Source of the DNA: Ktedonobacteraceae bacterium
GTDB taxonomy: Bacteria; Chloroflexota; Ktedonobacteria; Ktedonobacterales; Ktedonobacteraceae
DNA: 64,000 bases
Assembly: GCA_035650355.1 (NCBI GenBank)
Contig: DASRHT010000056.1
Location: forward strand, 23,624-87,623
Direction of reading: 5' to 3'
Made by a program: the position numbers and the translations under genes. Numbering within the stretch: position 1 is the stretch's first letter; every line of letters begins with the position of its first letter. Below, piece after piece: positions 11,258 through 57,594 of the stretch. The notes beneath the pieces are model-generated. The model had not been told where the DNA came from. It saw only the letters and a list, made by a program, of their open reading frames with translations, and ran no database searches.

Positions 11258-12301
11258 ATGGCAAAAGTCCTTCCCACGCTGAGGAAGCAGCAGCATCCCC
11301 TTGCCGATAGCACCTATCAACGCCGACTACTGGACGATCTGTCGCTGCGTCCCTTTGCGGAAGCGGCGGCGAGCGCGGGCCATCGTCCGCTCAAGGCTGC
11401 CGGGATCAGCGTTTTGCAGCTCAACGTTGGGAAACGCTGTAATCAGACCTGTGCTCACTGCCATGTGGATGCCGGGCCTGAACGCAAGGAGGTGATGACG
11501 CGCGAGGTGCTGGAGGCGGCGCTGAACTTTCTGGCGCAGAGCGATATTCCAACGCTCGATATCACCGGAGGCGCGCCCGAGATGCATCCCGATTTCCGCG
11601 AGATCGTCGAACGCGCTACAGCTCTGGGGCGCCATGTGATGGACCGCTGCAATCTCTCCATTACACGCCTGCCCAATTACTCCTACCTGCCCGAATTTCT
11701 GGCTGAGCATCGCGTCGAGGTGGTCGCATCTCTCCCGTCCTACGCCGTCAAAACAACCGATACGCAGCGCGGCGAGGGGGTTTTTGAAGATTCGATTGCC
11801 GCCCTCCAGCATTTCAATCGCCTGGGCTACGGCAAAGAGGAGAGCGGCTTGATTCTCAACCTGGTGACCAATCCGGTGGGGGCTTTTCTCCCCGGCAACC
11901 AGCACTCTTTAGAACGCGACTGGAAGGCGCAGATGAAGAGGCGTTATGGTATAGAGTTTAATCACCTCTACACCATCACCAATATGCCGATCAGCCGCTT
12001 TCTGGATTTCCTGCTGCGCTCCGGCAATCTCGAAGCGTACCTAGAGAAGCTGGTGACGGCATTTAATCCCGCGACCGTTGAGGGCCTGATGTGTCGCACG
12101 ACGCTCTCTATCGGCTGGGATGGACGGCTCTATGATTGCGACTTCAATCAGATGCTCGACTTAGGGGTGGGGCCGCAGGCTCCCCAGACTATTTTTGAGG
12201 CAACGCCGGAAAGCCTGTCCCAACGGGTGATCCAGTTGGGACAGCATTGCTATGGCTGCACAGCCGGACTCGGCTCCAGTTGTGGAGGCGCGACCGTTTA
12301 G
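11258..12301 (+). CDS. arsS: radical SAM / Cys-rich domain protein, ArsS type
   Basis: 347 aa. CNQTCAHCH radical-SAM cluster motif and C-terminal Cys-rich tail HCYGCTAGLGSSCGGA, the position where some homologs carry Sec. Confidence 0.75.
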   Translation: MAKVLPTLRKQQHPLADSTYQRRLLDDLSLRPFAEAAASAGHRPLKAAGISVLQLNVGKRCNQTCAHCHVDAGPERKEVMTREVLEAALNFLAQSDIPTLDITGGAPEMHPDFREIVERATALGRHVMDRCNLSITRLPNYSYLPEFLAEHRVEVVASLPSYAVKTTDTQRGEGVFEDSIAALQHFNRLGYGKEESGLILNLVTNPVGAFLPGNQHSLERDWKAQMKRRYGIEFNHLYTITNMPISRFLDFLLRSGNLEAYLEKLVTAFNPATVEGLMCRTTLSIGWDGRLYDCDFNQMLDLGVGPQAPQTIFEATPESLSQRVIQLGQHCYGCTAGLGSSCGGATV

Positions 12302-13119
12302 CTGGCGATGTCCTGCCTGCGCTTGCGCCCCACAACGATCTGCCGCGTCCCTTTGCCGAACGGCCTCCAATCGTAGTCGCCATAGATGGCCTCGATGCTG
12401 AAATTGGTCGCCAGGAAGAGGAGCTGCAATTCGCGCGGGAAGAACATGTGCATGTCGAGCCTGGTCATGTAGCGTTCGTTTTCTCCGGCGCGGAAGAATT
12501 TTTCATGCGTCCAGATGATGTGCTGGAGCTGCTCAATCGGATCATACTTGCGACTGGTGTAGAGCAGCATGGTAAATTCGTCATCTGGACCTTCGATTTC
12601 GTCCTCCATATAGACGTGCGACGGGCGATTAAGCGCGTCACTCAGGTAATCAATATCGGGAATAAAAGTATCAACGACAAAGCGACCACCAGGAGCCAGG
12701 TGATCGTAAGTATTGTTAAAGGTTTCAAGCTGCTGCTCAATTTCGTAGAGGTGCGCAATAGAGTTGAAGGGAAGGAAAATCAGATCGAAGGCGCCCTTTT
12801 CGGCAAGCTGATACTTGCACATGTCGCCTTCGTGGAGGATGACGCGCTGTCGCACGGACTCGGGTTCGCGCTCTAATTTGCGAGCGTAAACGGCCAGCAT
12901 CTCTGACGAGATGTCCAGCCCTTCCAGTTGAAAATCGCCCGGTCCACGCAACAGCTCCAGACCAATTCGACCGGTGCCGCACGCCAGCTCCAGCACGCGT
13001 CGGGGCGTGTAGCGCATCACCAGTTCACGCCAGAAGGGGAGGTCCAGCTCCGATTGGCCCTGATACTCCAGGTCATAATCGCTGGGCCGCTCGTAGAACT
13101 CCCCCAGATTGTAAGACAT
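12298..13119 (-). CDS. class I SAM-dependent methyltransferase
   Basis: 273 aa. VLELACGTGRIGLEL is motif I. Its stop codon overlaps the arsS stop convergently. Confidence 0.85.
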   Translation of the reverse strand: MSYNLGEFYERPSDYDLEYQGQSELDLPFWRELVMRYTPRRVLELACGTGRIGLELLRGPGDFQLEGLDISSEMLAVYARKLEREPESVRQRVILHEGDMCKYQLAEKGAFDLIFLPFNSIAHLYEIEQQLETFNNTYDHLAPGGRFVVDTFIPDIDYLSDALNRPSHVYMEDEIEGPDDEFTMLLYTSRKYDPIEQLQHIIWTHEKFFRAGENERYMTRLDMHMFFPRELQLLFLATNFSIEAIYGDYDWRPFGKGTRQIVVGRKRRQDIAS

Positions 13120-16604: not shown

Positions 16605-17264
16605 TCAGCGATCCAGGCGCTTCTGCCCGTATGATTTGACCCAGAAATCGTGCAATGCCGTGGTCTCCTCCGGCGAGAGAAAAATGGGTGTGCCGAGCTG
16701 CCTGGCGATGGTGTAGATTTTCGCGTTATCCTCGAGGGCGTGGGCCGCCGAAAAGGTAGCTGCGAGATTTGCTCCCACCACCATCGCCCCGTGATTGCCC
16801 CAGATGACGGCATTGCCGTTGCCCAGTACCTGCGCGATATGTTCGGCGAATTCCGCCGTACCCGACCTCTTGTAAGGCGCAATCGGCACCTCTCCGCCCA
16901 GGCAGAGGGCAGAGTCGGCCAGGACAACCGGGATGGACTGGTAGACCACGCCAAAGGCGGTGGCATAAGGGGAATGGGTGTGCATGACGCAATGAATGTC
17001 GCTGCGTCGGCGCAAAATGCAGGTGTGCAGCGGCGTCTCGACGGTGGGTCGCCATTTGCCCTCGATCACCGCTCCATGCTGATCCACCACCACGATATCT
17101 TCTGCCGTTAGGGTCTGGTAGTCGGCCCCGCTCGGCGTGACGCAGATCAGCCCGCTCTCAAGATCGCGTGCGCTCAGGTTGCCCTGCGTGGCCTGGACAA
17201 GCTGGCTATCGTACATTTTTCCGGCGTAACGCACAACCTCGGCGCGCAAATCAGCTAATAACAT
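16605..17264 (-). CDS. class II aldolase/adducin family protein
   Basis: 219 aa. GNLSARD...ICVTPSG...VMHTHSPYATAF motifs are of L-fuculose-phosphate-aldolase type. Confidence 0.85.
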   Translation of the reverse strand: MLLADLRAEVVRYAGKMYDSQLVQATQGNLSARDLESGLICVTPSGADYQTLTAEDIVVVDQHGAVIEGKWRPTVETPLHTCILRRRSDIHCVMHTHSPYATAFGVVYQSIPVVLADSALCLGGEVPIAPYKRSGTAEFAEHIAQVLGNGNAVIWGNHGAMVVGANLAATFSAAHALEDNAKIYTIARQLGTPIFLSPEETTALHDFWVKSYGQKRLDR

Positions 17265-17804: not shown

Positions 17805-18325
17805 TGGCATATCAGCAAGGGTCGAGGTATCACGTATGGGCGCGTACTTCTTTTTTATGTGCTGTATTGTTGTGGGGGGAACAATGATTACAACCCGACC
17901 AACATACAGTTTATTCCTTGCTTCCTTCTTTATCCTATCGGTAGGAGAAAGGTGTGATTATAGCAGCCGCTTGCTTTGTGTTAACGAACGTTCCCTTCTC
18001 TAGTACCTCCCTTTCCACAAGGTAAATAACTTTTTCAAGGTATTTATGTGATGAACGCTGCAGGAAAGCTATGAATCACTCTCTAGTCCTTTTTTCTCCC
18101 TCCCCTCCCATTTTTGGAACAAGTCCTTGCGGATCGAAGTATAAATAGAACCACTTACAGCGTAGTTCTGAGGAGAGAAAGCGCGCTGCGCTACTCCTAT
18201 ACATCGGAAAGGCGCCAGGGGCATTATCGGCAAGTAGGAAGCATTTAATAGGTAATACCCGTTGTATTAGCAAATGAATTGATGGATTTCTTGATTTTTA
18301 TACTGATATATGGTAGGTTATTTAT

Positions 18326-18671: not shown

Positions 18672-18719
18672 CCGCAACATGCAATGACTCCATTAAAGTG
18701 AGATGAAAGGAGCTTTTCC

Positions 18720-19034
18720 GTGAGCTTTTTCGATGTGACCACCAATGCGCGCCAGGGTTTCAGTATTGAACTGACAGATGAGGAGTTGAAGCTGGTGACA
18801 GGAGCCCGTGGCGGACATAACAACCACGGCAACCATAATCATCATAACCACAACAATCATCACAATCACAACAATCATCATAACCATCATAACCATCATA
18901 ACCACAACAACAATCATAACCACAACAATCATCATAACCGGCAAGTCAACCACAACAACAATAATAACAATAACTGCCATCGGCATCACCGTCACCATAA
19001 CCAGTTCTTTTGCAATAACAATGACAATGATTAG
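18720..19034 (+). CDS. double-glycine(GA)-leader peptide precursor B, His/Asn-rich core
   Basis: AAGGAG at 18707-18712 and GTG at 18720. The leader ...IELTDEELKLVTGA is paralogous to that of precursor A. The 75-aa core has about 26 His, 33 Asn and 2 Cys. Confidence 0.65.
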   Translation: MSFFDVTTNARQGFSIELTDEELKLVTGARGGHNNHGNHNHHNHNNHHNHNNHHNHHNHHNHNNNHNHNNHHNRQVNHNNNNNNNCHRHHRHHNQFFCNNNDND

Positions 19035-19087: not shown

Positions 19088-19118
19088 TACAAAGGCTCTC
19101 AAGGAAGGAGCCTTTGTA
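19088..19118 (+). terminator. 11-bp-stem hairpin after precursor B (possible partial terminator/attenuator)
   Basis: TACAAAGGCTC (19088-19098) pairs with GAGCCTTTGTA (19108-19118). No strong U-tract. Confidence 0.4.
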
Positions 19119-22023: not shown

Positions 22024-23175
22024 TCAGCCTCCTTTGACGTTGGACAGGTTGCCGGAGTTTTTCCCATTATCTCCGTTGCTCCCGTTCTTCCCGCCGCCGT
22101 TGCCACCTCTGCTGCCGCCTCCTCCTCCATCATTATGTCTATGGCCGTTATCATTTTTGTTGCCCTGGTCATCTTTTGGCACAACCAGGGTGATCGCATT
22201 CGTTTGCGCCGCGGTGCCATCGGAATTAAGAATGCCAATCGTATGGGGCGATTGCGTGTTCTGCCAGGGTATGACGAAAACGTAAACGCCATTTTGAAAA
22301 GAGCCTGTGTTGGTCACAACGCGATTATCAATAAGCAACTGCGCGCCATTGGAGAGATTGCTGCCGGTGAGGCTAATCATGGCCTGTTCCTGGGGATGGA
22401 AGGAGAGCACCATGAAAACGCTCTGTAGATGTGGCACGGTATCGCCCAACTGCGCCAGCCTGGCAGTCGTTTGCAGGCGCTCATCGATAGTTAACAGGGG
22501 GAGCAGCCCCCGCAACGTGGTGCGCATCTCACTGCGGGTTTGAGCCAGTTCGTCCGACAGGCGGTCCCGGTCAGCTCCGGCAGGTAATGTATTAATGATC
22601 TGGACAATCATGTCGATCTGCTGGTCTATATCCGCCAGGTCCTGGTAATAGGCTGTTGTATCGGCAGGGGTAGTCAGGCTGGTCAGCGATTTGAGGCGGT
22701 CAAGAACGATCTGGCGGCACACTTCGGCGCGATCCAGGGGGGAGTGCGCCAGGGAGATCTGTACATTTTGTTCCCAGTTCTTCACCACATACAACGGGCT
22801 GGTAGGGCCGGAAGCCTGCGCCACCGCTAACACGCCAGTTCCCAGCAGCAGGCACAGCAGCGTAATACTGGCGATAAGCAACGCGCGCCGGGGCTGCCAG
22901 GCCGGCCAGGGAAGCCAGCTCCATCGCGAGAGCGCCAACCTTTTCTGCTGTAACTGCGCATTCCGCAGCAGCAGACGTTGCTCCAGGTGCCTGGCAAAGA
23001 CAGGCGATGCTTCTAAAGAGGGTGCGGATTGTATACGATCCGCCAGCTTGACCAGTTCATCTACTTCTGGATCATTGCCGAGAGCATCGAGTAATTGGCC
23101 CTGTTGTTCCGTGTTGTGCCAAAAAGTAATCTGTTGTTCAAGCCGATCATTGAGCCGGTCAGGAAGTGGTCTCAT
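22024..23175 (-). CDS. putative anti-sigma factor (single-pass membrane protein with extracytoplasmic domain and Gly/Asn-rich tail)
   Basis: Overlaps the upstream ECF sigma gene by 17 nt. TM LLIASITLLCLLLGTGVLAVA. C-terminus KDDQGNKNDNGHRHNDGGGGGSRGGNGGGKNGSNGDNGKNSGN. Confidence 0.6.
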   Translation of the reverse strand: MRPLPDRLNDRLEQQITFWHNTEQQGQLLDALGNDPEVDELVKLADRIQSAPSLEASPVFARHLEQRLLLRNAQLQQKRLALSRWSWLPWPAWQPRRALLIASITLLCLLLGTGVLAVAQASGPTSPLYVVKNWEQNVQISLAHSPLDRAEVCRQIVLDRLKSLTSLTTPADTTAYYQDLADIDQQIDMIVQIINTLPAGADRDRLSDELAQTRSEMRTTLRGLLPLLTIDERLQTTARLAQLGDTVPHLQSVFMVLSFHPQEQAMISLTGSNLSNGAQLLIDNRVVTNTGSFQNGVYVFVIPWQNTQSPHTIGILNSDGTAAQTNAITLVVPKDDQGNKNDNGHRHNDGGGGGSRGGNGGGKNGSNGDNGKNSGNLSNVKGG

Positions 23176-23923
23176 CGTACTTCCTCCTGGTGTGAGCGTA
23201 GTGGTGCGCGTGGTTAAAGGGAAGCCTCCCTATAGCTTCGGTCTCAAAACTCTCAATAGAGCCAGTTGCAAAATTGGAGCGCGGATCATTGGGCTGCGAG
23301 TTCTTCTCTTTAAGCAAACGATGCAGGCTCTGTAACGCACGGAATTGCAAGGCTTTGACCGCATTGGCTTTCTTGCCGGTCATGCGTGCAACGGTGGCTA
23401 CATCATATCCCATAATCAAGCGACCAACCAGCACCTGTCGCTGTTCTTCCGTCAGGGCGTTAATAGCTTGAACGACAGTTTGCCATTCCGCGCGGGCCTC
23501 CGCCTGTAGGACGGGATCGGCCTCCGCTTGAGTTGTATAGCCTATTTCGTCACCTTCCCCTGAAACAGGATCGAGAGGAACAAATGCTGGCTGGTTTTCG
23601 CGTTTGCGGTAGTAGCCAGCAATGGTATTGCGTGCAATTTGTAAAAGCCAGGCAGCAAACCCTGCCGCGTCATTGGTTCTGACGCGGTGAATGCTCTCGA
23701 CCATGCTTAAAAAGACCTCCGAGGTCAGATCCTCTGCCGTAGCGCGATCTGGAACCCGAGTGGCGATGTATCCAAATATGCCAGGAAGAAACTGGCGGTA
23801 TAACGTGCTCAGAGACTCCGATTCGCCCTGCCGCGCCTGGTCGAGCAGGCGGCTAAATACAGGAGATCCATGACCTTGATCAGAAGCGCCGCCTTCGGAG
23901 GAACTCCGCCTGGAAAACATCAA
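23159..23923 (-). CDS. ECF-type RNA polymerase sigma-70 family factor
   Basis: 254 aa. Region 2 (DLTSEVFLSMVESIHRV...FAAWLLQIARN) and region 4 (LTEEQRQVLVGRLIMGYDVATVARMTGKKANAVKALQFRAL). Confidence 0.85.
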   Translation of the reverse strand: MMFSRRSSSEGGASDQGHGSPVFSRLLDQARQGESESLSTLYRQFLPGIFGYIATRVPDRATAEDLTSEVFLSMVESIHRVRTNDAAGFAAWLLQIARNTIAGYYRKRENQPAFVPLDPVSGEGDEIGYTTQAEADPVLQAEARAEWQTVVQAINALTEEQRQVLVGRLIMGYDVATVARMTGKKANAVKALQFRALQSLHRLLKEKNSQPNDPRSNFATGSIESFETEAIGRLPFNHAHHYAHTRRKYDETTS

Positions 23924-35706: not shown

Positions 35707-38700
35707 ATGTCCTTTCTTTCCAGGTTAAGCCTGGCGAATAAAAGTATCGTGGCCCTTGCCACTATCGCGATTCTGCTCTTTGGCGCGGTCGTGATCCCTT
35801 CTCTCAAACGGGAGCTGCTGCCGTCGATAGCCTTTCCCGCCGTCTCTGTTGTCAGCGTCTACCCTGGCGCTTCCCCTGCCAGCGTTGAGCAAGATGTGAC
35901 CAATCCGCTGGAAAAAAACTTTCAGGGTATCGCAGGACTTCAGCAGCTCACATCCTTTTCCAATGAGGGCGTCTCGATCATTATTGCCGAATATGATTTT
36001 AATACTGATCTGGATAAAGCCAGCCAGAATTTGACCCAACTGATCAGCAAAACGCAATCAAGCCTGCCCGCCAATGTCACGCCGCAGGTTCAAACATTCA
36101 ATATTTCAGATCAGCCGATCATTCGCCTGGCTGTGACCTCTTCCGCCAATCAGCAGGATCTGGCAACGCAGCTCAATCAGAATGTCGTTCCGGTGTTGCA
36201 GGGCATTGATGGCGTCGCCAATGTCACCCTCACGGGGGTACGCAATCAGATCGTGACGGTGGCGCTTGATCTGAAGAAGTTGCAGGATAACGGGTTGAGC
36301 GTCACCCAGGTCCAGGGCGCGCTCCAGGCCAATAACCTGACGCTGCCGGCGGGCGAGGTCAACAACAACGACCAGACCGTAGCCATACGCGTTGGCAACA
36401 CCCTGAACTCGCTCGACGATCTGAAAAATCTGGTCGTCGGCTTGCACACCTCCATACCGGCAGGCGTGGGTGGGGGAACAACGATCCCGGGTATTCCTGG
36501 TAGAACGGGACAGGGCGCATTTAACGTTGCACCATCCGCTCCACCCACTCCCGTCAGGCTCAAGGATGTGGCGACGGTGACGCAAGATCTGGCTCCCTCC
36601 ACCACATTGACCCGTACCAACGGCAAGCCGAGCCTGGGCCTTTTAATCACCAAGACCTCCAGCGGCAATACTGTTACCATCTCGCAAGCGATCAACGACA
36701 AGCTACCGGACCTGGAAAAGCAGCTCGGCTCCGATGCGAAAATCACGGTCATTTCGGACCAGGCTCCCACCATTCAGTCCTCTATTAACGATCTGGTGCG
36801 GGAGGGGCTGGTCGGAGCCGGCTTTGCCATTCTCGTCATCCTGCTTTTCCTGCTCTCGATCCGCTCGACGCTGGTGACGGCCATCTCTATTCCCCTTTCG
36901 GTTGTGATTGCTTTGATCGGGCTGTGGGTTGGCAACTATTCGCTAAACGTGCTGACGCTGGGCGGGCTGACGATTGCCATCGGGCGCGTGGTTGACGACT
37001 CGATTGTCGTGCTGGAGAACATTTATCGCCATATGCATCTTGGCGAAGACAAGCTCACCGCTGTGCTCCAGGGGGTGCGCGAGGTCGCCGGAGCGATTAC
37101 CGCTTCGACCATCACCACCGTCGCGGTCTTTCTGCCCATCGCCTTTACCACCGGCATCGTGGGCGAATTTTTCCAGCCGTTCTCCATCGCCGTGACGGTT
37201 GCCCTGCTGGCCTCGCTCTTCGTGGCCCTGACCATCATTCCCGTACTGGCCTACTGGTTTATGAAACCGCCAAAGCGGCGTCAGGAGCAAAATGGACATG
37301 AGCGGCTCACGATTTTGGAGCGGGCGTACATTCCTCTAGTGCGCACGGTGACGCGTTTTCGCGTGCTGACGCTGCTCGTGGCCTTGCTGCTGCTCGTCGG
37401 CACCTTCTCGCTCTACCCTTTCCTGGAGACCAACCTCTTCGGCAATGCGACGCAGAATACGTTCAGCATCAATCTTCAGCTCCCTGCCAGTAGCAGCCTG
37501 GAGCGCACCGACGCTGCCGCACAAAAAGTCGAGAATGTGTTAGCGGGCATCCAGGGGATTCAGACGTATCAGGTGACGGTGGGATCGAATGGTTCCGTCT
37601 TGTCCCTGTCGTCCAGCGGCTCCAATAGCGCCTCTTTCGCCGTGACGACCGATCCCAACGCCGATCAAAATGCGATCCAGCAGAAAGTGCGCGATCAGCT
37701 TAAAAACCTGACCGATATCGGCACCTTTACCCTTTCCAGCCAGGGAGGAGGCGGCAATAACTCGGCTATTGCCGTCAACGTCCAGGCGAACGACGATCAG
37801 ACGTTGCGCCAGGCCACGCAGCAGGTGTTCAACGCCGTCTCGCAGGCTCCTGATCTAACCGACGTGACAAGCTCTCTCACCGATGCTGCACCATTGATAG
37901 ATGTGCGTGTGGACGCTCAAAAGGCTGCCAGTCACGGCATGACTGCCGCGCAGGTTGGTCAGACCTTGCGCGACATCTATACCGGCACAACCGTGACCCA
38001 TGTGACACTGAATGGGACGCTACAGGATGTCGATCTCAAATTGGGCACGCCCGCGAACACCGTTCAGGGCATCCAGGATATGCTCATTCCCACCACGACC
38101 GGCAATGTGCGGCTCGGCGATCTGGCCGATGTCACTCAGACCACCGGCCCCACGCAGATAACGCATATCGCCACTAACCGGACCGCGACGATCAACGCCA
38201 CCGTTACCAGTCAGAACGTCGGAGCTGTCAGCATTGATGTACAGAACCGCGTCAACAAATTGAGCCTGCCGAGCGGCGCCACCGTTTCGCTGGGTGGCGT
38301 GACGACTCAGCAGCAGCAGGCATTCCAGAGCCTGGGACTGGCCCTGCTGGCGGCGATAGTGCTGGTCTATGTCGTCATGGTCGCGACCTTCCGCAGCTTA
38401 TTGCAGCCGTTGATTCTGATGATCGCGATCCCCTTCGCGGCTACTGGCTCCATTCTGCTGTTGCTGGCGACGCATACCGCGCTGGGTCTGCCCTCGCTGA
38501 TCGGCGTATTGATGCTGGTCGGGATTGTCGTCACCAACGCCATTGTCTTACTCGACCTGGTTAATCAGTATCGCAACCGGGGGTTGGATGCGCGTGCAGC
38601 CGTAGTCGAGGGGGGCCGTCGCCGCGTTCGCCCCATCCTGATGACGGCCATCGCCACGATCCTGGCCCTGATCCCGATGGCGCTCAACCTCGGCGGCTCC

Positions 38701-39003
38701 AGCGGCTTCTTATCCGGCCCTCTCGCCATCGTGGTGATCGGCGGGTTAACGTCATCGACCTTCCTGACGTTGCTCATCGTGCCCACGCTTTACGTCATCG
38801 TAGAAGATATCCGCGAGCGTTCGCGCCGCAAGCAGCCGGCAGTCGTCGGCCAGAACGGAGCGGTTGTGGTTGAAAGCGATCTGCAAAGGGCGCTCATGCT
38901 GGAGGAGGAATACCGCCAGCTCAAGCAGGAAGTCGAATCCCTGCGTCAAGAGCGCGACGTTCTCAAAAAGGCCATCGCCATCTTCTCGCGCGGCAATATG
39001 TGA
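35707..39003 (+). CDS. RND-superfamily efflux permease (AcrB/HAE-type) with C-terminal coiled-coil extension
   Basis: 1098 aa, 12 TM segments and two large loops. RLELLPSIAFPAVSVVSVYPGASP and GLTIAIGRVVDDSIVVLENI are typical. The last ~45 aa resemble the IS3 OrfA leucine zipper. Confidence 0.9.
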   Translation: MSFLSRLSLANKSIVALATIAILLFGAVVIPSLKRELLPSIAFPAVSVVSVYPGASPASVEQDVTNPLEKNFQGIAGLQQLTSFSNEGVSIIIAEYDFNTDLDKASQNLTQLISKTQSSLPANVTPQVQTFNISDQPIIRLAVTSSANQQDLATQLNQNVVPVLQGIDGVANVTLTGVRNQIVTVALDLKKLQDNGLSVTQVQGALQANNLTLPAGEVNNNDQTVAIRVGNTLNSLDDLKNLVVGLHTSIPAGVGGGTTIPGIPGRTGQGAFNVAPSAPPTPVRLKDVATVTQDLAPSTTLTRTNGKPSLGLLITKTSSGNTVTISQAINDKLPDLEKQLGSDAKITVISDQAPTIQSSINDLVREGLVGAGFAILVILLFLLSIRSTLVTAISIPLSVVIALIGLWVGNYSLNVLTLGGLTIAIGRVVDDSIVVLENIYRHMHLGEDKLTAVLQGVREVAGAITASTITTVAVFLPIAFTTGIVGEFFQPFSIAVTVALLASLFVALTIIPVLAYWFMKPPKRRQEQNGHERLTILERAYIPLVRTVTRFRVLTLLVALLLLVGTFSLYPFLETNLFGNATQNTFSINLQLPASSSLERTDAAAQKVENVLAGIQGIQTYQVTVGSNGSVLSLSSSGSNSASFAVTTDPNADQNAIQQKVRDQLKNLTDIGTFTLSSQGGGGNNSAIAVNVQANDDQTLRQATQQVFNAVSQAPDLTDVTSSLTDAAPLIDVRVDAQKAASHGMTAAQVGQTLRDIYTGTTVTHVTLNGTLQDVDLKLGTPANTVQGIQDMLIPTTTGNVRLGDLADVTQTTGPTQITHIATNRTATINATVTSQNVGAVSIDVQNRVNKLSLPSGATVSLGGVTTQQQQAFQSLGLALLAAIVLVYVVMVATFRSLLQPLILMIAIPFAATGSILLLLATHTALGLPSLIGVLMLVGIVVTNAIVLLDLVNQYRNRGLDARAAVVEGGRRRVRPILMTAIATILALIPMALNLGGSSGFLSGPLAIVVIGGLTSSTFLTLLIVPTLYVIVEDIRERSRRKQPAVVGQNGAVVVESDLQRALMLEEEYRQLKQEVESLRQERDVLKKAIAIFSRGNM

Positions 39004-44665: not shown

Positions 44666-44930
44666 ATCTGATCCTCTCTTTCTCCATACAAAAGGGGAAA
44701 TCTCCTGTGTTGTTGCTCATCAGCGCCAATTGATTATTTTTCTTATTGCGAATTACTTGCAATTACGAAATTTAGATGGTATGCTTTTACTTGTCGCAGG
44801 ATGTGCTGATAGCACCGTGTAATAGCTTTTCAGCATGTTAATTGCAGATGAGTCCACAACTGAGGTGTTTTGTATACAGATAGAGTTTTGCTAGTCTTCA
44901 AGCGTATCGTTGCGCCTTGCAGGAGGGTTT

Positions 44931-46037
44931 ATGAGCAGTAACTTTGGTATTTCGGCAATCTCGCGTGTTTTTAGTGATAGCTCGAAAGATTTGCGTACCA
45001 AGATCATCGGGATATATATCCTCCTGATTGCCTTCAACATGCTTGCCTGGGCGCTTGCCATTGTTGGCTTTGCGACGCAATACCCTGCGCTGCTCGGCAC
45101 CGCGCTGCTGGCTTACACTTTTGGGCTGCGTCACTCTGTTGATGCAGACCATATTTCAGCGATTGACAATGTAACCCGTAAGTTGATGCAGGAGGAGAAG
45201 CGACCGGTTGCTGTGGGCTTTTTCTTCTCGCTAGGTCACTCCACCATTGTTGTGGCGTTGACTATTGCTATTGCGCTCGCAGCTACTTTTATCGAAGGGA
45301 GCATTCCTGCGCTTAAAAATGCCGGTGGCTTGATTGGTACATCGGTTTCGGCGCTCTTCCTCTTTTTGATCGCGATCATCAATATGCTGGTGCTCTGGGA
45401 AATCTTCGCGGCCTTTCAGAAAGTGAAGCGAGGAGAAGAGTATAACGATCAATCGCTGGATGAGTTTTTGAACCAGCGCGGGCTGATGGGGCGTTTCTTC
45501 CGTCCGTTACTCAGAATCGTCGATTCTAGCTGGAAAATGTACCTGGTGGGTTTGCTCTTTGGCCTGGGCTTTGATACCGCAACAGAAGTTGGCATTCTGA
45601 GCATTTCGGCGGCAGAAGCCAGCAAAGGCTTGCCCATTCTCTTTATCCTCATCTTCCCGGCATTATTCACGGCTGGCATGTGCTTGCTGGATACTACAGA
45701 CGGCATTTTAATGCTGGGTGCCTATGGCTGGGCGTTTGTTAAGCCGGTGCGCAAGCTCTATTATAACCTGAACATTACCCTGGTCTCCGTCCTGGTGGCT
45801 CTGGTAATTGGCGCTATTGAGGTGCTCAGTATTATCGCGATGGAGTTTAATCTGAGCGGTGGCATCTGGGGTAGGCTTGGCAATCTGGATTTTGGCATCC
45901 TCGGCGGCGTTATCATCGGACTATTCGTTGTAAGCTGGATAGTTTCGACCATCATCTACAAGGTGAAAAAATACGATGATATCGAGGTCAACGTCGCGCC
46001 TCAGCCTAAAGAACTGGTTAGCAGCGGTGGTCAGTAG
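44931..46037 (+). CDS. NiCoT (HoxN/HupN/NixA) family nickel/cobalt transporter
   Basis: RHSVDADHISAIDNVTR signature (HxxDADHI), LGFDTATEV, and 8 TM segments. AGGAGGG RBS before ATG 44931 (the ORF opens at 44910). Confidence 0.85.
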   Translation: MSSNFGISAISRVFSDSSKDLRTKIIGIYILLIAFNMLAWALAIVGFATQYPALLGTALLAYTFGLRHSVDADHISAIDNVTRKLMQEEKRPVAVGFFFSLGHSTIVVALTIAIALAATFIEGSIPALKNAGGLIGTSVSALFLFLIAIINMLVLWEIFAAFQKVKRGEEYNDQSLDEFLNQRGLMGRFFRPLLRIVDSSWKMYLVGLLFGLGFDTATEVGILSISAAEASKGLPILFILIFPALFTAGMCLLDTTDGILMLGAYGWAFVKPVRKLYYNLNITLVSVLVALVIGAIEVLSIIAMEFNLSGGIWGRLGNLDFGILGGVIIGLFVVSWIVSTIIYKVKKYDDIEVNVAPQPKELVSSGGQ

Positions 46038-54262: not shown

Positions 54263-55192
54263 ATGCGTTTAGCTATTCTAACATCCCGCATTCGTGTGGA
54301 AGAGAAGTTGTTGATCGAGGCCATGCGGAGGCGCGCTATCGATTTTGATGTGATCGATGATGAAGAACTGCTCTTTGATCTCGCCCGGCCTGATGAGCGC
54401 TGGCGAGCGTACGATGCTGTGCTTTGTCGCAGCGTGAGCCAGTCGCGCGGGCTGGCGGCGCTGCACATCCTGGAGCACATGGGCATTATCGTCTTTAATT
54501 CGGCGGCGGTGACTGCACGCTGTAATGACAAGTTGCTCACGACGCTGGCACTCATGCGCGCGGGCGTTCCCACTCCTCGCACGATGCTGGCATTCGATGC
54601 GCAGCGAGCCGTGCAGGGAATTGAAGAGCTGGGCTATCCGGTTGTGCTCAAGCCCGTGACAGGTTCCTGGGGGCGGCTGCTGGCGCGCATTAATGATCGC
54701 GATGCGGCTGAAGCGGTGCTTGAGCATCAGGAGACGCTTGGCTCGTACCAGCACCACATTCACTATATTCAGCAGTATATCGCCAAGCAATTCGTTGCAG
54801 ACGACCTGAGCGAAGCTAGCTGCGAGAGCGGCGTTGGTCGTCTGAATAGCAAGCTACAACGCGATATTCGCGCCTTCGTCGTGGGTGATCGTACGATCTG
54901 CGCCATCTATCGCACCAGCGAACATTGGGTTACCAATACCGCACGCGGCGCGGTTGCCAGCAATTGCCCCATCTCTGCCGAACTGGATCGCCTCTGCACG
55001 CAGGCGGCGCAGGCGGTGGGCGGCGGTATCCTGGCAATCGATGTACTGGAGGACCCGGAGCGGGGCCTGCTGGTCAACGAGATCAATGCGACGATGGAGT
55101 TTCGCAATAGCATCGCGCCAACGGGCGTCGATATCCCTGATGCGATGCTGGATTATGTGCTGAGCCATGTGCGGGAAGGAGTGGCGCTATGA
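54263..55192 (+). CDS. lysX: RimK-type ATP-grasp ligase LysX (alpha-aminoadipate--LysW ligase) with 23-codon repeat insertion
   Basis: MRLAILTSRIRVEEKLLIEA..., GYPVVLKPVTGSWGR, and RDIRAFVVGDRTICAIYR. The extra segment FVADDLSEASCESGVGRLNSKLQ is encoded by 54791-54859. Confidence 0.88.
   Translation: MRLAILTSRIRVEEKLLIEAMRRRAIDFDVIDDEELLFDLARPDERWRAYDAVLCRSVSQSRGLAALHILEHMGIIVFNSAAVTARCNDKLLTTLALMRAGVPTPRTMLAFDAQRAVQGIEELGYPVVLKPVTGSWGRLLARINDRDAAEAVLEHQETLGSYQHHIHYIQQYIAKQFVADDLSEASCESGVGRLNSKLQRDIRAFVVGDRTICAIYRTSEHWVTNTARGAVASNCPISAELDRLCTQAAQAVGGGILAIDVLEDPERGLLVNEINATMEFRNSIAPTGVDIPDAMLDYVLSHVREGVAL
54797..54844. repeat. GCGAAGC-core palindromic element, copy C (inside lysX)
   Basis: GCAGACGAC-CTGAGCGAAGCTAGCTGCGAGAGCGGCGTT-GGTCGTCTG with a perfect 9-bp stem, followed by AATAGCAAGC as in copy A. 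Confidence 0.9.
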
Positions 55193-56250
55193 GTCAATTG
55201 CGCGTCGCTATTGTCGGCGGATCGGGCTATACAGGCGGCGAGCTGATCCGCCTGCTGCTCTTCCATCCTCAGGTTGAACTGGCGCAGGTGGCATCAAGCA
55301 GCCATGCGGGGCAGTACGTCCATAGCGTCCATCCCAACCTGCGCACGCTCTGCACGCTCAGATTTTGTCATCCAGACGACCTGACGTCATGTGATACGTT
55401 GTTTCTATGTTTGCCGCATGGCGTATCCAGCCAGGATATTGAGCGTTACCGCGGCATTGCCACACGCGTGATCGATCTTTCGGCTGACTTCCGCTTGCGT
55501 TCCGCCGCGCTCTATCAACGCTGGTACGGTGCGCCCCACAACAGGCCGGACCTACTGGCAGAGGCGGTCTATGGCCTGCCCGAACTGCATCGTGAGGAAC
55601 TGCCGGACGCGACGTTTGTCAGTGGCACTGGCTGCATGGCGACCGCCGCTATTCTGGGGCTGGCTCCCCTCTATCGCAGCGGCATCGTCAACATCGCCAT
55701 CCCGCTCGTCGTAGAAGCCAAAGTCGGCTCTTCGGCTGCTGGAGCAACGCCGGGGGCTGGCAGCCATCATCCCGATAGAAGCGGGGCCGTGCGCTCATTT
55801 CAGCCAACCGGCCATCGTCACAGCGCCGAACTGATTCAGGAGCTTGGCACTATCTCCGGTGGCGAGCTTCAGCAGCCCGTCGCCTTCTCCGCCACGGCCA
55901 TTGAACTGGTGCGCGGCGTGCTGATCACGGCTCATGTCTTTGTGCGCGAAAGCCTGGATGAACGCATGCTCTGGCGCATCTATCGCGCAGCCTATCAGCG
56001 CGAACCGTTTATCCGCCTGGTCAAAGAGCGCAGTGGCATCTATCGCTATCCTGAGCCAAAGATCCTGGCGGGCAGCAATTTCTGCGATATCGGCTTTGAA
56101 TACGACGGCGAGCAGCGACGCGTGGTGGTGATGGCGGCTCTGGATAACCTGATGAAGGGCGCGGCAGGCAACGGCGTGCAGGCACTCAATAGCATGTATG
56201 GCTGGGATGAGACGCTTGGATTGAGCTTCCCTGGCCTGCATCCCATCTAA
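55189..56250 (+). CDS. lysY: [LysW]-aminoadipate-6-phosphate reductase (ArgC-like) LysY
   Basis: 353 aa. VAIVGGSGYTGGELIRLL and an ArgC-family catalytic Cys region. ATGA overlap with lysX. Confidence 0.85.
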   Translation: MSQLRVAIVGGSGYTGGELIRLLLFHPQVELAQVASSSHAGQYVHSVHPNLRTLCTLRFCHPDDLTSCDTLFLCLPHGVSSQDIERYRGIATRVIDLSADFRLRSAALYQRWYGAPHNRPDLLAEAVYGLPELHREELPDATFVSGTGCMATAAILGLAPLYRSGIVNIAIPLVVEAKVGSSAAGATPGAGSHHPDRSGAVRSFQPTGHRHSAELIQELGTISGGELQQPVAFSATAIELVRGVLITAHVFVRESLDERMLWRIYRAAYQREPFIRLVKERSGIYRYPEPKILAGSNFCDIGFEYDGEQRRVVVMAALDNLMKGAAGNGVQALNSMYGWDETLGLSFPGLHPI

Positions 56251-56262
56251 AAGGAGCAGACG

Positions 56263-57060
56263 ATGACGCTTGTTGTAAAGATTGGCGGCGGAGCTGGCAT
56301 CGCCACATCGAACATTGTACGCGAGATTGCCCGCTATAGAGCGCAAGGGCAACAGATCGTGTTGCTGCATGGCGGCTCCGACCTCACCAATACGCTCTCT
56401 GAGCAGATGGGGCATGCCGTGCGCACGATTACTTCGCCGACGGGTATGACCAGTCGCTACACCGATAGCGAGACCTTGCGCATCTTCGCGATGGCGACGG
56501 CGGGGCAGATCAACACCGAACTGGTGGCGCTTTTGCAGCAGCAGGGGGTCAACGCACTTGGCCTCGCTGGTGTGGATGGGCGCTTGCTGGTGGGACGACG
56601 CAAGGCCATTGTGCGCTCGGTAACGCCGGATGGTCGCACGCAGATCTTGCGCGATGACTATACCGGCCAGGTTGAGCAGGTCAATGGCGAACTTTTAAGG
56701 CAATTGCTCGATATGGGCTATACTCCCGTGATTGCCCCACTGGCCTTGAGCTACGAGGGCGAGCGCCTCAACGTCGATGGGGACCGCGCCGCCGCTGCCG
56801 TCGCCTCAGCCTTGCAAGCCGACGCGCTGGTAATTATGACCAACGTGCCAGGTCTGCTCGCCGATCCACACAATCCCGCCACGCTCATTCGCACCATTCC
56901 AGCACAGCAGCTTGCTGAATACATGGATTACGCCCGGGGCCGCATGCGCAAGAAATTGCTAGGAGCGCAAGAAGCCCTGCGTGGAGGCGTCCCGCACGTC
57001 TATATCGGCTGTGACTCGCTGGCGGCGGTTCTTAGTGGGGAAGGAACGGTGATTGCGTAA
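56263..57060 (+). CDS. lysZ: [LysW]-aminoadipate kinase (ArgB-like) LysZ
   Basis: 265 aa. VVKIGGGAG, VLLHGGS and the amino-acid-kinase fold pattern. Confidence 0.85.
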   Translation: MTLVVKIGGGAGIATSNIVREIARYRAQGQQIVLLHGGSDLTNTLSEQMGHAVRTITSPTGMTSRYTDSETLRIFAMATAGQINTELVALLQQQGVNALGLAGVDGRLLVGRRKAIVRSVTPDGRTQILRDDYTGQVEQVNGELLRQLLDMGYTPVIAPLALSYEGERLNVDGDRAAAAVASALQADALVIMTNVPGLLADPHNPATLIRTIPAQQLAEYMDYARGRMRKKLLGAQEALRGGVPHVYIGCDSLAAVLSGEGTVIA

Positions 57061-57064
57061 GATT

Positions 57065-57552
57065 TCGTAGGGTCCCGCTTTAGCGCGACCGGCGCGATTT
57101 ATCGCGTTCCCCACGAGAAAACACGGTTTCACCATCGAACTGATGATGCTCAGCACCGCATTTGCATTTGTCGTACAGGATGATTTTGAAGAGAAAGCGA
57201 CACGGGTGATTTTGGGAAAGCGAGCTGATTGTGGACAGAGTGGCTTGCACCGTCCTGCTTGTACGGATGAGGCCAGATGGAAAGCGAGCTGATTGTGGAC
57301 AAAATGGCTTGCACCGTCCTGCTTGTAGGCATGAGGCCAGATGGAAAGCGAGCTGATTGTGGACAAAATGGCTTGCAACAGGGATATTTTCGTGGGGACG
57401 AGCTGATTGCGAATGGAGCGGATCATAGCATGATGATTTTAATTTGGGATAACCATATTGGTAACGGTTGGGCATTGAGGGCGAGATTTGAGGGTTGCGA
57501 AGGGTGGGTAGGCGATAAATCGCGCCGGTCGCGCTAAAGCGGGACCCTACGA
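57065..57552. mobile_element. MITE-like non-autonomous element with 41-bp perfect terminal inverted repeats
   Basis: 57065-57105 (TCGTAGGGTCCCGCTTTAGCGCGACCGGCGCGATTTATCGC) is the exact reverse complement of 57512-57552. No credible ORF inside. Sits between lysZ and lysJ. Confidence 0.65.
57216..57420. repeat. 63-bp tandem repeat, about 3 copies, inside the MITE-like element
   Basis: GGAAAGCGAGCTGATTGTGGACA(A/G)A(A/G)TGGCTTGCACCGTCCTGCTTGTA..GATGAGGCCAGAT recurs at 57216, 57279 and 57342. Confidence 0.9.
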
Positions 57553-57594
57553 GGGTTACGACGAAGGTTGCGTTGATATAGAAAGGAAAGACAC

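Follow-up and report, generated by a model that had tools for sequence, protein, structure and literature searches.

A histidine- and asparagine-rich double-glycine peptide of Ktedonobacteria, encoded beside its probable exporter, with a possible role in metal binding

The window analysed here is a stretch of 64,000 nucleotides from a Ktedonobacteraceae bacterium (contig DASRHT010000056.1 of GenBank assembly GCA_035650355.1), and its subject is a short gene, the His/Asn precursor, whose predicted secreted product consists largely of histidine and asparagine. The gene is the second of two precursor genes (three in one lineage) in an enzyme-free double-glycine export cassette, ordered as companion precursor, His-rich precursor, short HlyD-like protein and C39-peptidase ABC exporter (Table 1). 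The exporter, a peptidase-containing ABC transporter (PCAT), starts 761 nt 3′ of the precursor stop on the same strand; its Peptidase_C39 domain (residues 25–150) carries the catalytic-Cys motif QMNAVECGAACL (NAVECGAACL), and its best NCBIfam match is NHLM_micro_ABC1 (NHLP-type peptidase/permease/ATPase) at 670.9 bits, below the 853.3 cut-off, as the protein falls below every NCBIfam equivalog cut-off. The HlyD-like protein is called as 194 aa in public assemblies, and a Pfam scan gives no family match for it. Pfam and NCBIfam scans of all neighbours between 16605 and 23923 returned only a class II aldolase, a hypothetical protein, the HlyD-like protein, the PCAT, an anti-sigma-like protein and a sigma factor, with no tailoring enzyme; a ribosomally synthesised and post-translationally modified peptide is ruled out, the conserved cassette having no such enzyme.

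The predicted core (18807–19031) contains 26 His, 33 Asn, 4 Arg, 3 Gly and 1 Val, together with two residues each of Cys, Gln, Phe and Asp, giving a His+Asn content of 78.7% encoded with CAY or AAY at 59 of the 75 codons. This richness is far outside chance: when every 75-aa stretch without a stop is taken from the six frames of the 64 kb, the His+Asn fraction has a mean of 0.062 (sd 0.041) and reaches 0.227 at the best position elsewhere, against 0.787 at the locus. Three perfect tandem copies of CATCATAAC (18876–18902) lie inside a longer imperfect repeat tract, within which the in-frame indels and His/Asn swaps that separate lineages are located. The residue counts agree with the initial annotation of this DNA, which had described a 75-aa core after a Gly-Ala site with about 26 His, 33 Asn, 2 Cys and roughly 79% His+Asn, and the counts likewise bear out its nearly exclusive CAY/AAY codons and three perfect tandem copies; its C-x12-C spacing was off by one, as the cysteines stand at core residues 57 and 69 (C-x11-C). 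AlphaFold 2 (AF2) modelling of the precursor as a single sequence, at a mean predicted local distance difference test score (pLDDT) of 57, places a helix at residues 20–26 of the leader, leaves the His/Asn tract without secondary structure and predicts, at low confidence, a β-hairpin (85–89/95–99) around Cys86 and Cys98 of the precursor.

Double-glycine leaders are characterised by hydrophobic residues at −4, −7 and −12, an acidic residue at −8, Gly at −2 and Gly, Ala or Ser at −1. The leader ending in IELTDEELKLVTGA, followed by Arg as the first core residue, has L−12, E−8, L−7, V−4, G−2 and A−1, a pattern conserved in six lineages, and it resembles the leader of the companion precursor. The 15-column TIGR01847 bacteriocin_sig model aligns to leader residues 17–28 at 12.9 bits (cut-off 15.7, E = 0.14), and gives no match when the full-length precursor is scanned. 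Paralogous Ktedonobacterial PCAT loci carry two tandem double-glycine peptides, usually Gly/Ser/Ala-rich, so that the His/Asn cassette appears as a divergent member of a two-peptide export module typical of the lineage. A leader that fits the pattern, with the PCAT and HlyD-like genes directly downstream, upholds the proposed link between the leader–core architecture and the exporter, and points strongly to C39 cleavage after Gly-Ala and export of an unmodified 75-aa peptide.

Orthologues were found by translating loci directly, fetched via the exporter, whose closest match is 98% identical and comes from a Ktedonosporobacter sp. metagenome-assembled genome (MAG; L001), and via the companion peptide (P0001–P0006, Logan contigs L023–L030, and JGI contigs L031 and L032). 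Six lineages are represented: the window (= L033), L001 (= L034, L035), L023, the L026 group, L031 and L032. The five further Ktedonobacterial lineages all keep a GTG or ATG start, the leader (shared form MSFFD[VF]...ELTDE[ED]L..VTGA) and a stop after an acidic tail; precursor lengths across all six are 104, 105, 108, 112, 101 and 90 aa, each indel being a multiple of three, and ERSF[PST], in the translated region 5′ of the start, is conserved in L001, L023 and L031.

Both the +2 (Thr/Ile) frame and the antisense Val/Met frame are open at the locus, as CAY/AAY codons leave the Thr/Ile and in-register antisense frames open automatically; their openness proves nothing, and the frame is settled by the relatives. 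Between the window and L001, the ratio of synonymous to non-synonymous changes is 16:8 for His/Asn, 5:16 for Thr/Ile and 3:21 for the antisense reading, with 6/1/18 changes at codon positions 1/2/3; between the window and L023 the ratios are 19:5, 3:19 and 3:21, respectively. The synonymous excess in the His/Asn frame only indicates that purifying selection acts on that frame, and the mostly non-synonymous changes in the Thr/Ile and antisense frames rule out both as coding; nor was a comparable ribosome-binding site seen for the antisense ORF when read from sequence. Comparison of the relatives shows a real gene, read in the His/Asn frame. The initial annotation had chosen this frame and had set out what would speak against it, namely evidence favouring the Thr/Ile or antisense frame, or frameshifts in relatives; the orthologues show none of these, and their in-frame indels and mostly synonymous changes in the His/Asn frame alone corroborate the choice.

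The public gene calls examined place the locus on the wrong strand, the antisense ORF having been chosen by the gene caller in all assemblies with gene calls (L023, L026, L033, L034). A homology search of 5.8 billion protein clusters with the full precursor gave zero matches at E ≤ 0.01, a PDB search found no homologue, and exact look-up of the precursor product in a 15-billion-protein collection found it absent; this emptiness is attributed to the antisense gene calls rather than to a lack of relatives. With the antisense ORF as HMMER query, an exhaustive search of 1.84 billion representative proteins recovered three clusters (P0010–P0012), all antisense miscalls mapping to the window, the L031 lineage and L032; as the query yields only lineages already known, the family is small. 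Within the searched public protein collections it exists only as spurious hydrophobic ‘proteins’. A leader-profile search, the route to homologues that had been recommended at the outset, matched only a His/Arg-rich paralogue (P0007) and two peptides with unrelated cores (P0008, P0009), and the locus context of P0009 yielded no further His-rich genes. Nothing relevant was found in the literature joining double-glycine, PCAT, microcin or Ktedonobacter with histidine-rich peptides, and with no such peptide found described in either databases or literature, the searches are consistent with the earlier remark that no bacterial double-glycine peptide of this composition was known.

Comparison of core compositions (Table 1) separates the two dominant residues. 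Asn is replaced by Gln in L031, in part by Arg in L032, and by Arg, Asp and Glu in the paralogue P0007; His holds steady at 33–39% while Asn ranges from 11 to 46%, which identifies histidine, not asparagine, as the selected property. A C-terminal module with two cysteines is present in all six lineages, spaced C-x11-C in four and C-x9-C in L031 and L032, with the shared motif C[HQ]R[HQ]...NQxFC[NE][ND] followed by an acidic tail. The features under selection are a high density of His, spacers of hydrophilic character (amide or basic) and a short C-terminal hairpin, probably closed by a disulfide.

The L026 lineage has a third precursor, P0007, between the His/Asn and HlyD-like genes (L026 1652–1855; also L024 6695–6898, L025 6910–7113 and L027 2303–2506), with the leader MSFFDVT.NA.Q as in the His/Asn gene and a 30-aa His/Arg/acidic core (WGEQKNPPDHDHHHRHRHRRHHRRHERDER, 30% His). 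Its sequence suggests that the His-rich gene was duplicated and that one copy retained His and changed the partner residues; the window has no room for a third precursor, only 164 nt separating the His/Asn stop from the first HlyD-like start (19198). Low-complexity N-terminal tracts containing His occur in three further double-glycine peptides, each continuing into an ordinary core: a double-glycine peptide of a Dictyobacter MAG (L011 349–618) with a leader ending AGG and a core starting RHSHSHGHRHSHGRSHGHQGG, and two metagenomic peptides with leaders ending VTGA, P0009 (L037 451–732), whose core starts WGGFGHFRHFGRFGHFRHFRHFGG..STAIAISSVAIAG, and P0008, whose core starts WGHFGSFGSFGHFGSFG. 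Cargo peptides of a similar kind may repeatedly carry N-terminal segments rich in His.

Exporters are 87–98% identical among lineages (where recovered), companion peptides only 56–85%, and the His-rich cores differ between lineages by many swaps and indels; on these comparisons the cargo evolves faster than the export machinery. Core lengths of 75, 76, 78, 79, 57 and 64 aa, always in frame, lend weak support to the expectation that length is prone to slippage. Within lineages that expectation fails: the ORF DNA is identical between the window and L033, among L001, L034 and L035, and in five of the six L026-lineage assemblies, the sixth (L028) having the same peptide and length with different DNA. 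A rapidly slipping, contingency-type locus is unsupported, since most assemblies of any one lineage, though independent, carry identical DNA.

Table 1. Coordinates of the cassette features in the window, and of orthologous and antisense calls on other contigs
Feature	Coordinates	Strand	Remarks
Promoter-like site TTGATT-17 nt-TAGGTT	18291..18319	+	conserved in 7/7 aligned lineages
Inverted repeat, 13 bp, TTAGTAATCTTAT-N2/3-ATAAGgTTTaCTAA	18329..18357	.	nearly invariant across lineages; directly 3′ of promoter-like site
Companion precursor, 81 aa	18426..18671	+	leader ending LDLTDEDLAQVAGA; 45-aa Arg-rich core DGWWNIERMGRMREECRCGRRIRFSLTRLRVEYRLDFLHYNLRVN; homologues P0001–P0006
Antisense Val/Met/Ile-rich ORF	18693..18998	-	by-product of CAY/AAY codons; reported by public gene calls
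Shine-Dalgarno AAAGGAG of His/Asn precursor	18706..18712	+	7 nt 5′ of GTG
His/Asn precursor ORF	18720..19034	+	GTG start; 104 aa = 29-aa leader + 75-aa core
His/Asn precursor leader MSFFDVTTNARQGFSIELTDEELKLVTGA	18720..18806	+	double-glycine type, GA at −2/−1
Predicted mature core, 75 aa + stop	18807..19034	+	His 35%, Asn 44%, Gln 3%, Arg 5%
Imperfect tandem-repeat tract	18834..18939	+	periods 18 and 54 nt (Tandem Repeats Finder)
C-terminal Cys loop CHRHHRHHNQFFC, then acidic tail NNNDND	18975..19013	+	conserved
Stem-loop ACAAAGGCTC-N9-GAGCCTTTGT	19089..19117	+	between precursor and export genes; forms in minimum-free-energy fold
HlyD-like accessory protein, 194 aa	19207..19791	+	N-terminal membrane anchor; TIGR01843 type_I_hlyD weak, E = 1.4e-4, residues 94–184
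PCAT, 737 aa	19795..22008	+	Peptidase_C39 3.8e-34, ABC_membrane 2.8e-32, ABC_tran 3.7e-31
Anti-sigma-like (weak DUF5667) and ECF sigma factor	22024..23923	-	convergent with exporter; membership in system uncertain
His/Asn orthologue, L001	4928..5245		core His 36%, Asn 43%, Gln 3%, Arg 5%
His/Asn orthologue, L023	1820..2146		core His 35%, Asn 46%, Gln 3%, Arg 4%
His/Asn orthologue, L026	924..1262		core His 33%, Asn 44%, Gln 1%, Arg 4%
His/Asn orthologue, L031	2063..2368		core His 39%, Asn 11%, Gln 19%, Arg 8%
His/Asn orthologue, L032	1732..2004		core His 37%, Asn 25%, Gln 4%, Arg 11%
Antisense gene call, L033	4268..4573	-	
Antisense gene call, L034	3266..3577	-	
Antisense gene call, L023	1793..2110	-	
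Antisense gene call, L026	963..1223	-	

The companion core carries a charge of +5, and its conserved C-terminal 27 aa (GRRIRFSLTRLRVEYRLDFLHYNLRVN) comprise three strand-length runs in which hydrophobic and polar residues strictly alternate, the sequence pattern of an amphipathic β-sheet; companion Cys counts by lineage are 2, 2, 2, 2, 1 and 1, and the AF2 model is of low confidence (pLDDT 46). The conserved TTGATT-17-TAGGTT site, which is not among the sites reported by a consensus promoter scan, presumably serves as a σ70-like promoter of the two-precursor operon. The inverted repeat that follows it folds as RNA no better than shuffled sequence (z = −0.22), which makes a DNA operator likelier than a 5′-untranslated hairpin, and it stands as a candidate operator of the peptide operon; a by-eye comparison only gave no convincing match to Fur, Zur, NikR or IdeR boxes. 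Between the precursor and export genes, the stem of the stem-loop is invariant across six lineages and its loop varies in sequence and length; as a T-run is absent after it, it may act as a partial terminator or mRNA stabiliser. Upstream, a non-coding 90-nt block (18011–18100, CTTTCCACAAGGTAAATAAC...TCCTTTTTTCTCCC), flanked by the precursor operon and by a divergent hypothetical gene of 102–121 aa, hardly varies in six of the seven lineages aligned; L032 lacks it. No Rfam-type RNA family matched the conserved non-coding blocks, this one included.

Further out, the class II aldolase gene (16605–17264) marks the limit of the conserved neighbourhood: genes beyond it differ in the L024/L025 lineage, which places outside the conserved peptide cassette a radical-SAM gene with a DUF3641 C-terminal domain and a convergent SAM methyltransferase gene (11258–13119; 5.3 kb from the cassette), a pairing reminiscent of organo-arsenic metabolism genes. 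On the other side, adjacency of the exporter to the sigma/anti-sigma pair is kept in the close relatives L026, L032 and L033; the anti-sigma-like protein ends in a Gly/Asn-rich tail (...NDNGHRHNDGGGGGSRGGNGGGKNGSNGDNGKNSG). The window also encodes a NicO/HoxN-type high-affinity Ni/Co transporter (44910–46037, + strand; Pfam NicO E = 3.5e-102), which was set aside as a partner of the His-rich peptide, lying 26 kb away with unrelated genes between. A 1098-aa AcrB/RND-family transporter (35707–39003, + strand) is present in a host presumed to be a single-membrane Chloroflexi bacterium, and a group of genes at 54263–60180 (LysX-like ATP-grasp, semialdehyde dehydrogenase, amino-acid kinase and an aminotransferase–M20 peptidase fusion) looks like a carrier-protein (LysW-type) lysine/arginine biosynthesis cluster.

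The sequence evidence describes a known export system with a cargo of unprecedented composition, whose function it would narrow to histidine-based chemistry. The reading ranked first, though at somewhat under even confidence, is that of an exported, unmodified, disordered poly-His peptide that would bind transition metals in a secreted, metal-sequestering role. The adjacent ABC transporter, through its C39 peptidase domain, would recognise the 104-aa precursor by its leader (MSFFDV...ELTDEELKLVTGA), cut it after Gly-Ala and pump the peptide out with the assistance of the short HlyD-like protein. The released 75-aa peptide would be unmodified and largely disordered, a long His tract with Asn spacers ending in a small Cys-x11-Cys hairpin, probably disulfide-closed, with an acidic tail. 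Outside the cell its approximately 26 imidazoles would bind divalent transition metals (Zn, Ni, Cu, Co) multivalently and sequester them on the cell surface or in the environment, possibly starving competitors, buffering excess or capturing scarce metal, with the conserved Cys hairpin perhaps acting as a recognition handle.

Metal binding itself is suggested by composition and analogy, and its biological use is speculative. The (His-Asn)6 or ‘6xHN’ sequence is a commercial metal-affinity tag. It has been used with Ni resin (PMC6560410); transition metals, Ni among them, are bound with micromolar affinity by the His residues of the Q/H-rich domain of Drosophila Orb2 (PMC5618238); and Hpn and Hpn-2 of gastric Helicobacter, small and very rich in His (Hpn-2 in His and Gln, as is the L031 orthologue), are Ni-binding proteins (PMC4671568). 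The 6xHN tag and the Orb2 domain share with the His/Asn peptide an alternating His/amide chemistry; the former is engineered and the latter an intracellular eukaryotic amyloid, and both serve as analogies only. Hpn, unlike the precursor with its cleavable export leader and dedicated exporter, is cytoplasmic, lacks an export leader and serves urease and hydrogenase maturation, and the resemblance is one of composition, with no sequence homology.

Among secreted systems, bufferins and methanobactins are gene-encoded peptides that chelate transition metal outside the cytoplasm, as is presumed for the His/Asn peptide; in these, however, MNIO/DUF692 enzymes and their partners turn Cys into heterocycle or thioamide ligands, and bufferins use Sec signals (PMC11626156). 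The His/Asn peptide would by contrast combine plain imidazole ligands and PCAT export with no enzyme, and the 64-kb window contains none of the MNIO/DUF692 type. ZepA of Anabaena is an exported Zn-handling protein with a flexible His-containing N-terminus (PMC10957091). Both ZepA and Pra1 of Candida are exported polypeptides handling extracellular Zn, again presumed for the His/Asn peptide; they differ in being folded proteins with Sec signals, under Zur control and connected to uptake systems, and the locus shows none of these traits. The ATCUN motif, in which His at position 3 of a mature N-terminus binds Cu or Ni, requires separate mention: cut after Gly-Ala, the window peptide begins RGGH, with His at position 4, and lacks the motif, as do L001, L023 and L031, while L026 and L032 begin WGH and contain it, so that it is not a conserved feature of the His-rich peptide.

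Several observations weigh against a metal-sequestering role. No metal-uptake system, metal-responsive regulator or regulator box was recognised in or beside the cassette, and the sole metal transporter of the window, NicO, is 26 kb off; with no return route for a metal-loaded peptide visible, the evidence does not support a true metallophore cycle. Cassettes that combine a PCAT with several peptides are, classically, loci for bacteriocins, and cargo that diverges much faster than its exporter is a pattern that fits antagonism. The core has a calculated charge of about +26 at pH 5, which would permit a polycation mechanism with no need for metal. Finally, the family is found only among close relatives, hence the conservation arguments are shallow.

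The strongest competitor, a close one and to be taken seriously though unlikely, is an antimicrobial polycation switched on by acid, working either on its own or together with the Arg-rich companion as a two-peptide bacteriocin. Nearly uncharged at neutral pH, the core would become strongly polycationic in acidic soil as its His are protonated, and would then attach to and disrupt the anionic envelopes of competing bacteria or fungi in a histatin- or polylysine-like manner, metal being secondary or potentiating. Two precursors with HlyD-like and PCAT genes and no enzymes form the layout that is standard for class II bacteriocins, pairs of peptides are also encoded at sister PCAT loci, and the calculated core charge rises from +4 at pH 7 to +15 at pH 6 and +26 at pH 5, beside +5 for the companion; divergence of the cargo faster than the exporter agrees with this. 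The likeness to class II bacteriocins and microcins (colicin V/CvaAB, lactococcin G) and to ComC/BlpC extends to the leader pattern, a PCAT with C39, an HlyD-like protein, tandem precursors and the lack of tailoring enzymes. Known double-glycine cores of this class are, by contrast, Gly/Ala/Ser-rich, hydrophobic or amphipathic, the 79% His+Asn core here being hydrophilic and of low complexity, with no hydrophobic or amphipathic segment except QFF. The leader and PCAT also fall below the TIGR01847 and NCBIfam cut-offs, and an immunity gene or small membrane protein was neither called nor evident, by ORF inspection only, between 17357 and 22008 or at the orthologous loci.

Histatin 5 and other His-rich host-defence peptides offer a second comparison for the polycation, being secreted, disordered, His-rich and cationic at low pH, and the His/Arg-rich paralogue P0007 is the closest to them in composition. 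The activity of histatin-type peptides is modulated by Zn and Cu. Histatin 5, however, is eukaryotic, Sec-exported, 24 aa long and Lys/Arg-rich with no Asn tract, and the His/Asn core differs in its 26 His in 75 aa, its amide spacers and its Cys loop. Asn/Gln spacers are useless to a charge mechanism, and the two conserved Cys, with the conserved module at the C-terminus, point to recognition of a specific partner more than to an effect of bulk charge. Were this explanation true, the peptide would be a bacterial histatin analogue from a phylum valued as an untapped natural-product source.

Distinctly less probable is a developmental or matrix peptide that would self-assemble with its companion, as amyloid, coacervate or metal-cross-linked gel, on the surface of the mycelium or spores in this actinomycete-like host, under control of the BldN-like ECF (extracytoplasmic function) sigma factor. 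In Streptomyces, BldN drives aerial-hypha sheath proteins. The best NCBIfam match of the adjacent sigma factor is indeed the BldN family, but below threshold (123 against 206 bits), with its genes convergent rather than co-oriented and their adjacency to the exporter known among close relatives only; the conserved promoter-like site of the operon is, moreover, σ70-like and not ECF-like. Interchangeable Asn and Gln spacers, the prion-like character of Q/N-rich tracts, the three strand-length stretches of the companion C-terminus in which hydrophobic residues alternate with polar ones, and the Ni-promoted aggregation of the Q/H-rich Orb2 domain (PMC5618238) would suit self-assembly, but replacement of Asn, partly or largely, by Arg, Asp or Glu in L032 and P0007 is unfavourable to amyloid.

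A secreted pheromone processed by the PCAT, as are ComC and BlpC of streptococci, appears very improbable: PCATs also export peptide pheromones, and a sigma/anti-sigma pair lies beside the exporter, but a 75-aa low-complexity core of variable length and sequence makes a poor specific ligand, and the cassette has no histidine kinase/response regulator pair. Least credible of all is that the locus makes no secreted product, being translated in another frame or antisense, serving as a His/Asn-codon-sensing leader ORF for the export genes, or constituting a non-coding repeat, since, against the open alternative frames, the antisense ORF picked by gene callers in every assembly examined and the stem-loop 3′ of the ORF, stand the automatic openness of such frames with CAY/AAY codons, the 3:21 and 5:16 substitution ratios there against 16:8 in the His/Asn frame, indels all in multiples of three, and a ribosome-binding site, double-glycine-type leader and Cys loop on the sense ORF only, while an attenuator in particular is ruled out by a length of 104 codons, far above known attenuator leaders, by the conserved export-type leader and Cys loop, and by a stem-loop with no T-run.

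Of the functions first proposed by the initial annotation, histidine chemistry, as a metal ligand or pH switch, is favoured, and an Asn-specific amyloid disfavoured, His being constant and Asn swapped. Secreted metal sequestration, taken one step further, would make the peptide the founder of a new class, an enzyme-free, gene-encoded poly-His ‘ribosomal metallophore’, exported by a PCAT and capturing or withholding Zn, Ni or Cu outside soil Ktedonobacteria; this extension is tentative and on balance doubtful. The narrowness of the family, confined to close relatives with exporters at least 87% identical, counsels restraint, and its interest lies in the extreme composition, the purifying selection, the systematic mis-annotation and a possible new deployment of metal-binding or pH-switched peptides. 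That every public assembly examined has the gene annotated as an antisense ORF of hydrophobic character exposes a blind spot; poly-His peptides may have been overlooked through wrong-strand calls of CAY/AAY-rich genes, with more next to other PCATs, and six-frame, composition-aware scans of PCAT neighbourhoods could reveal further low-complexity secreted peptides. If extracellular metal binding holds true, this would be, as far as the searches go, the first unmodified peptide chelator of metals to be exported by a PCAT, a link between bacteriocin export and metal homeostasis, and a natural counterpart of the laboratory His and His-Asn tags.

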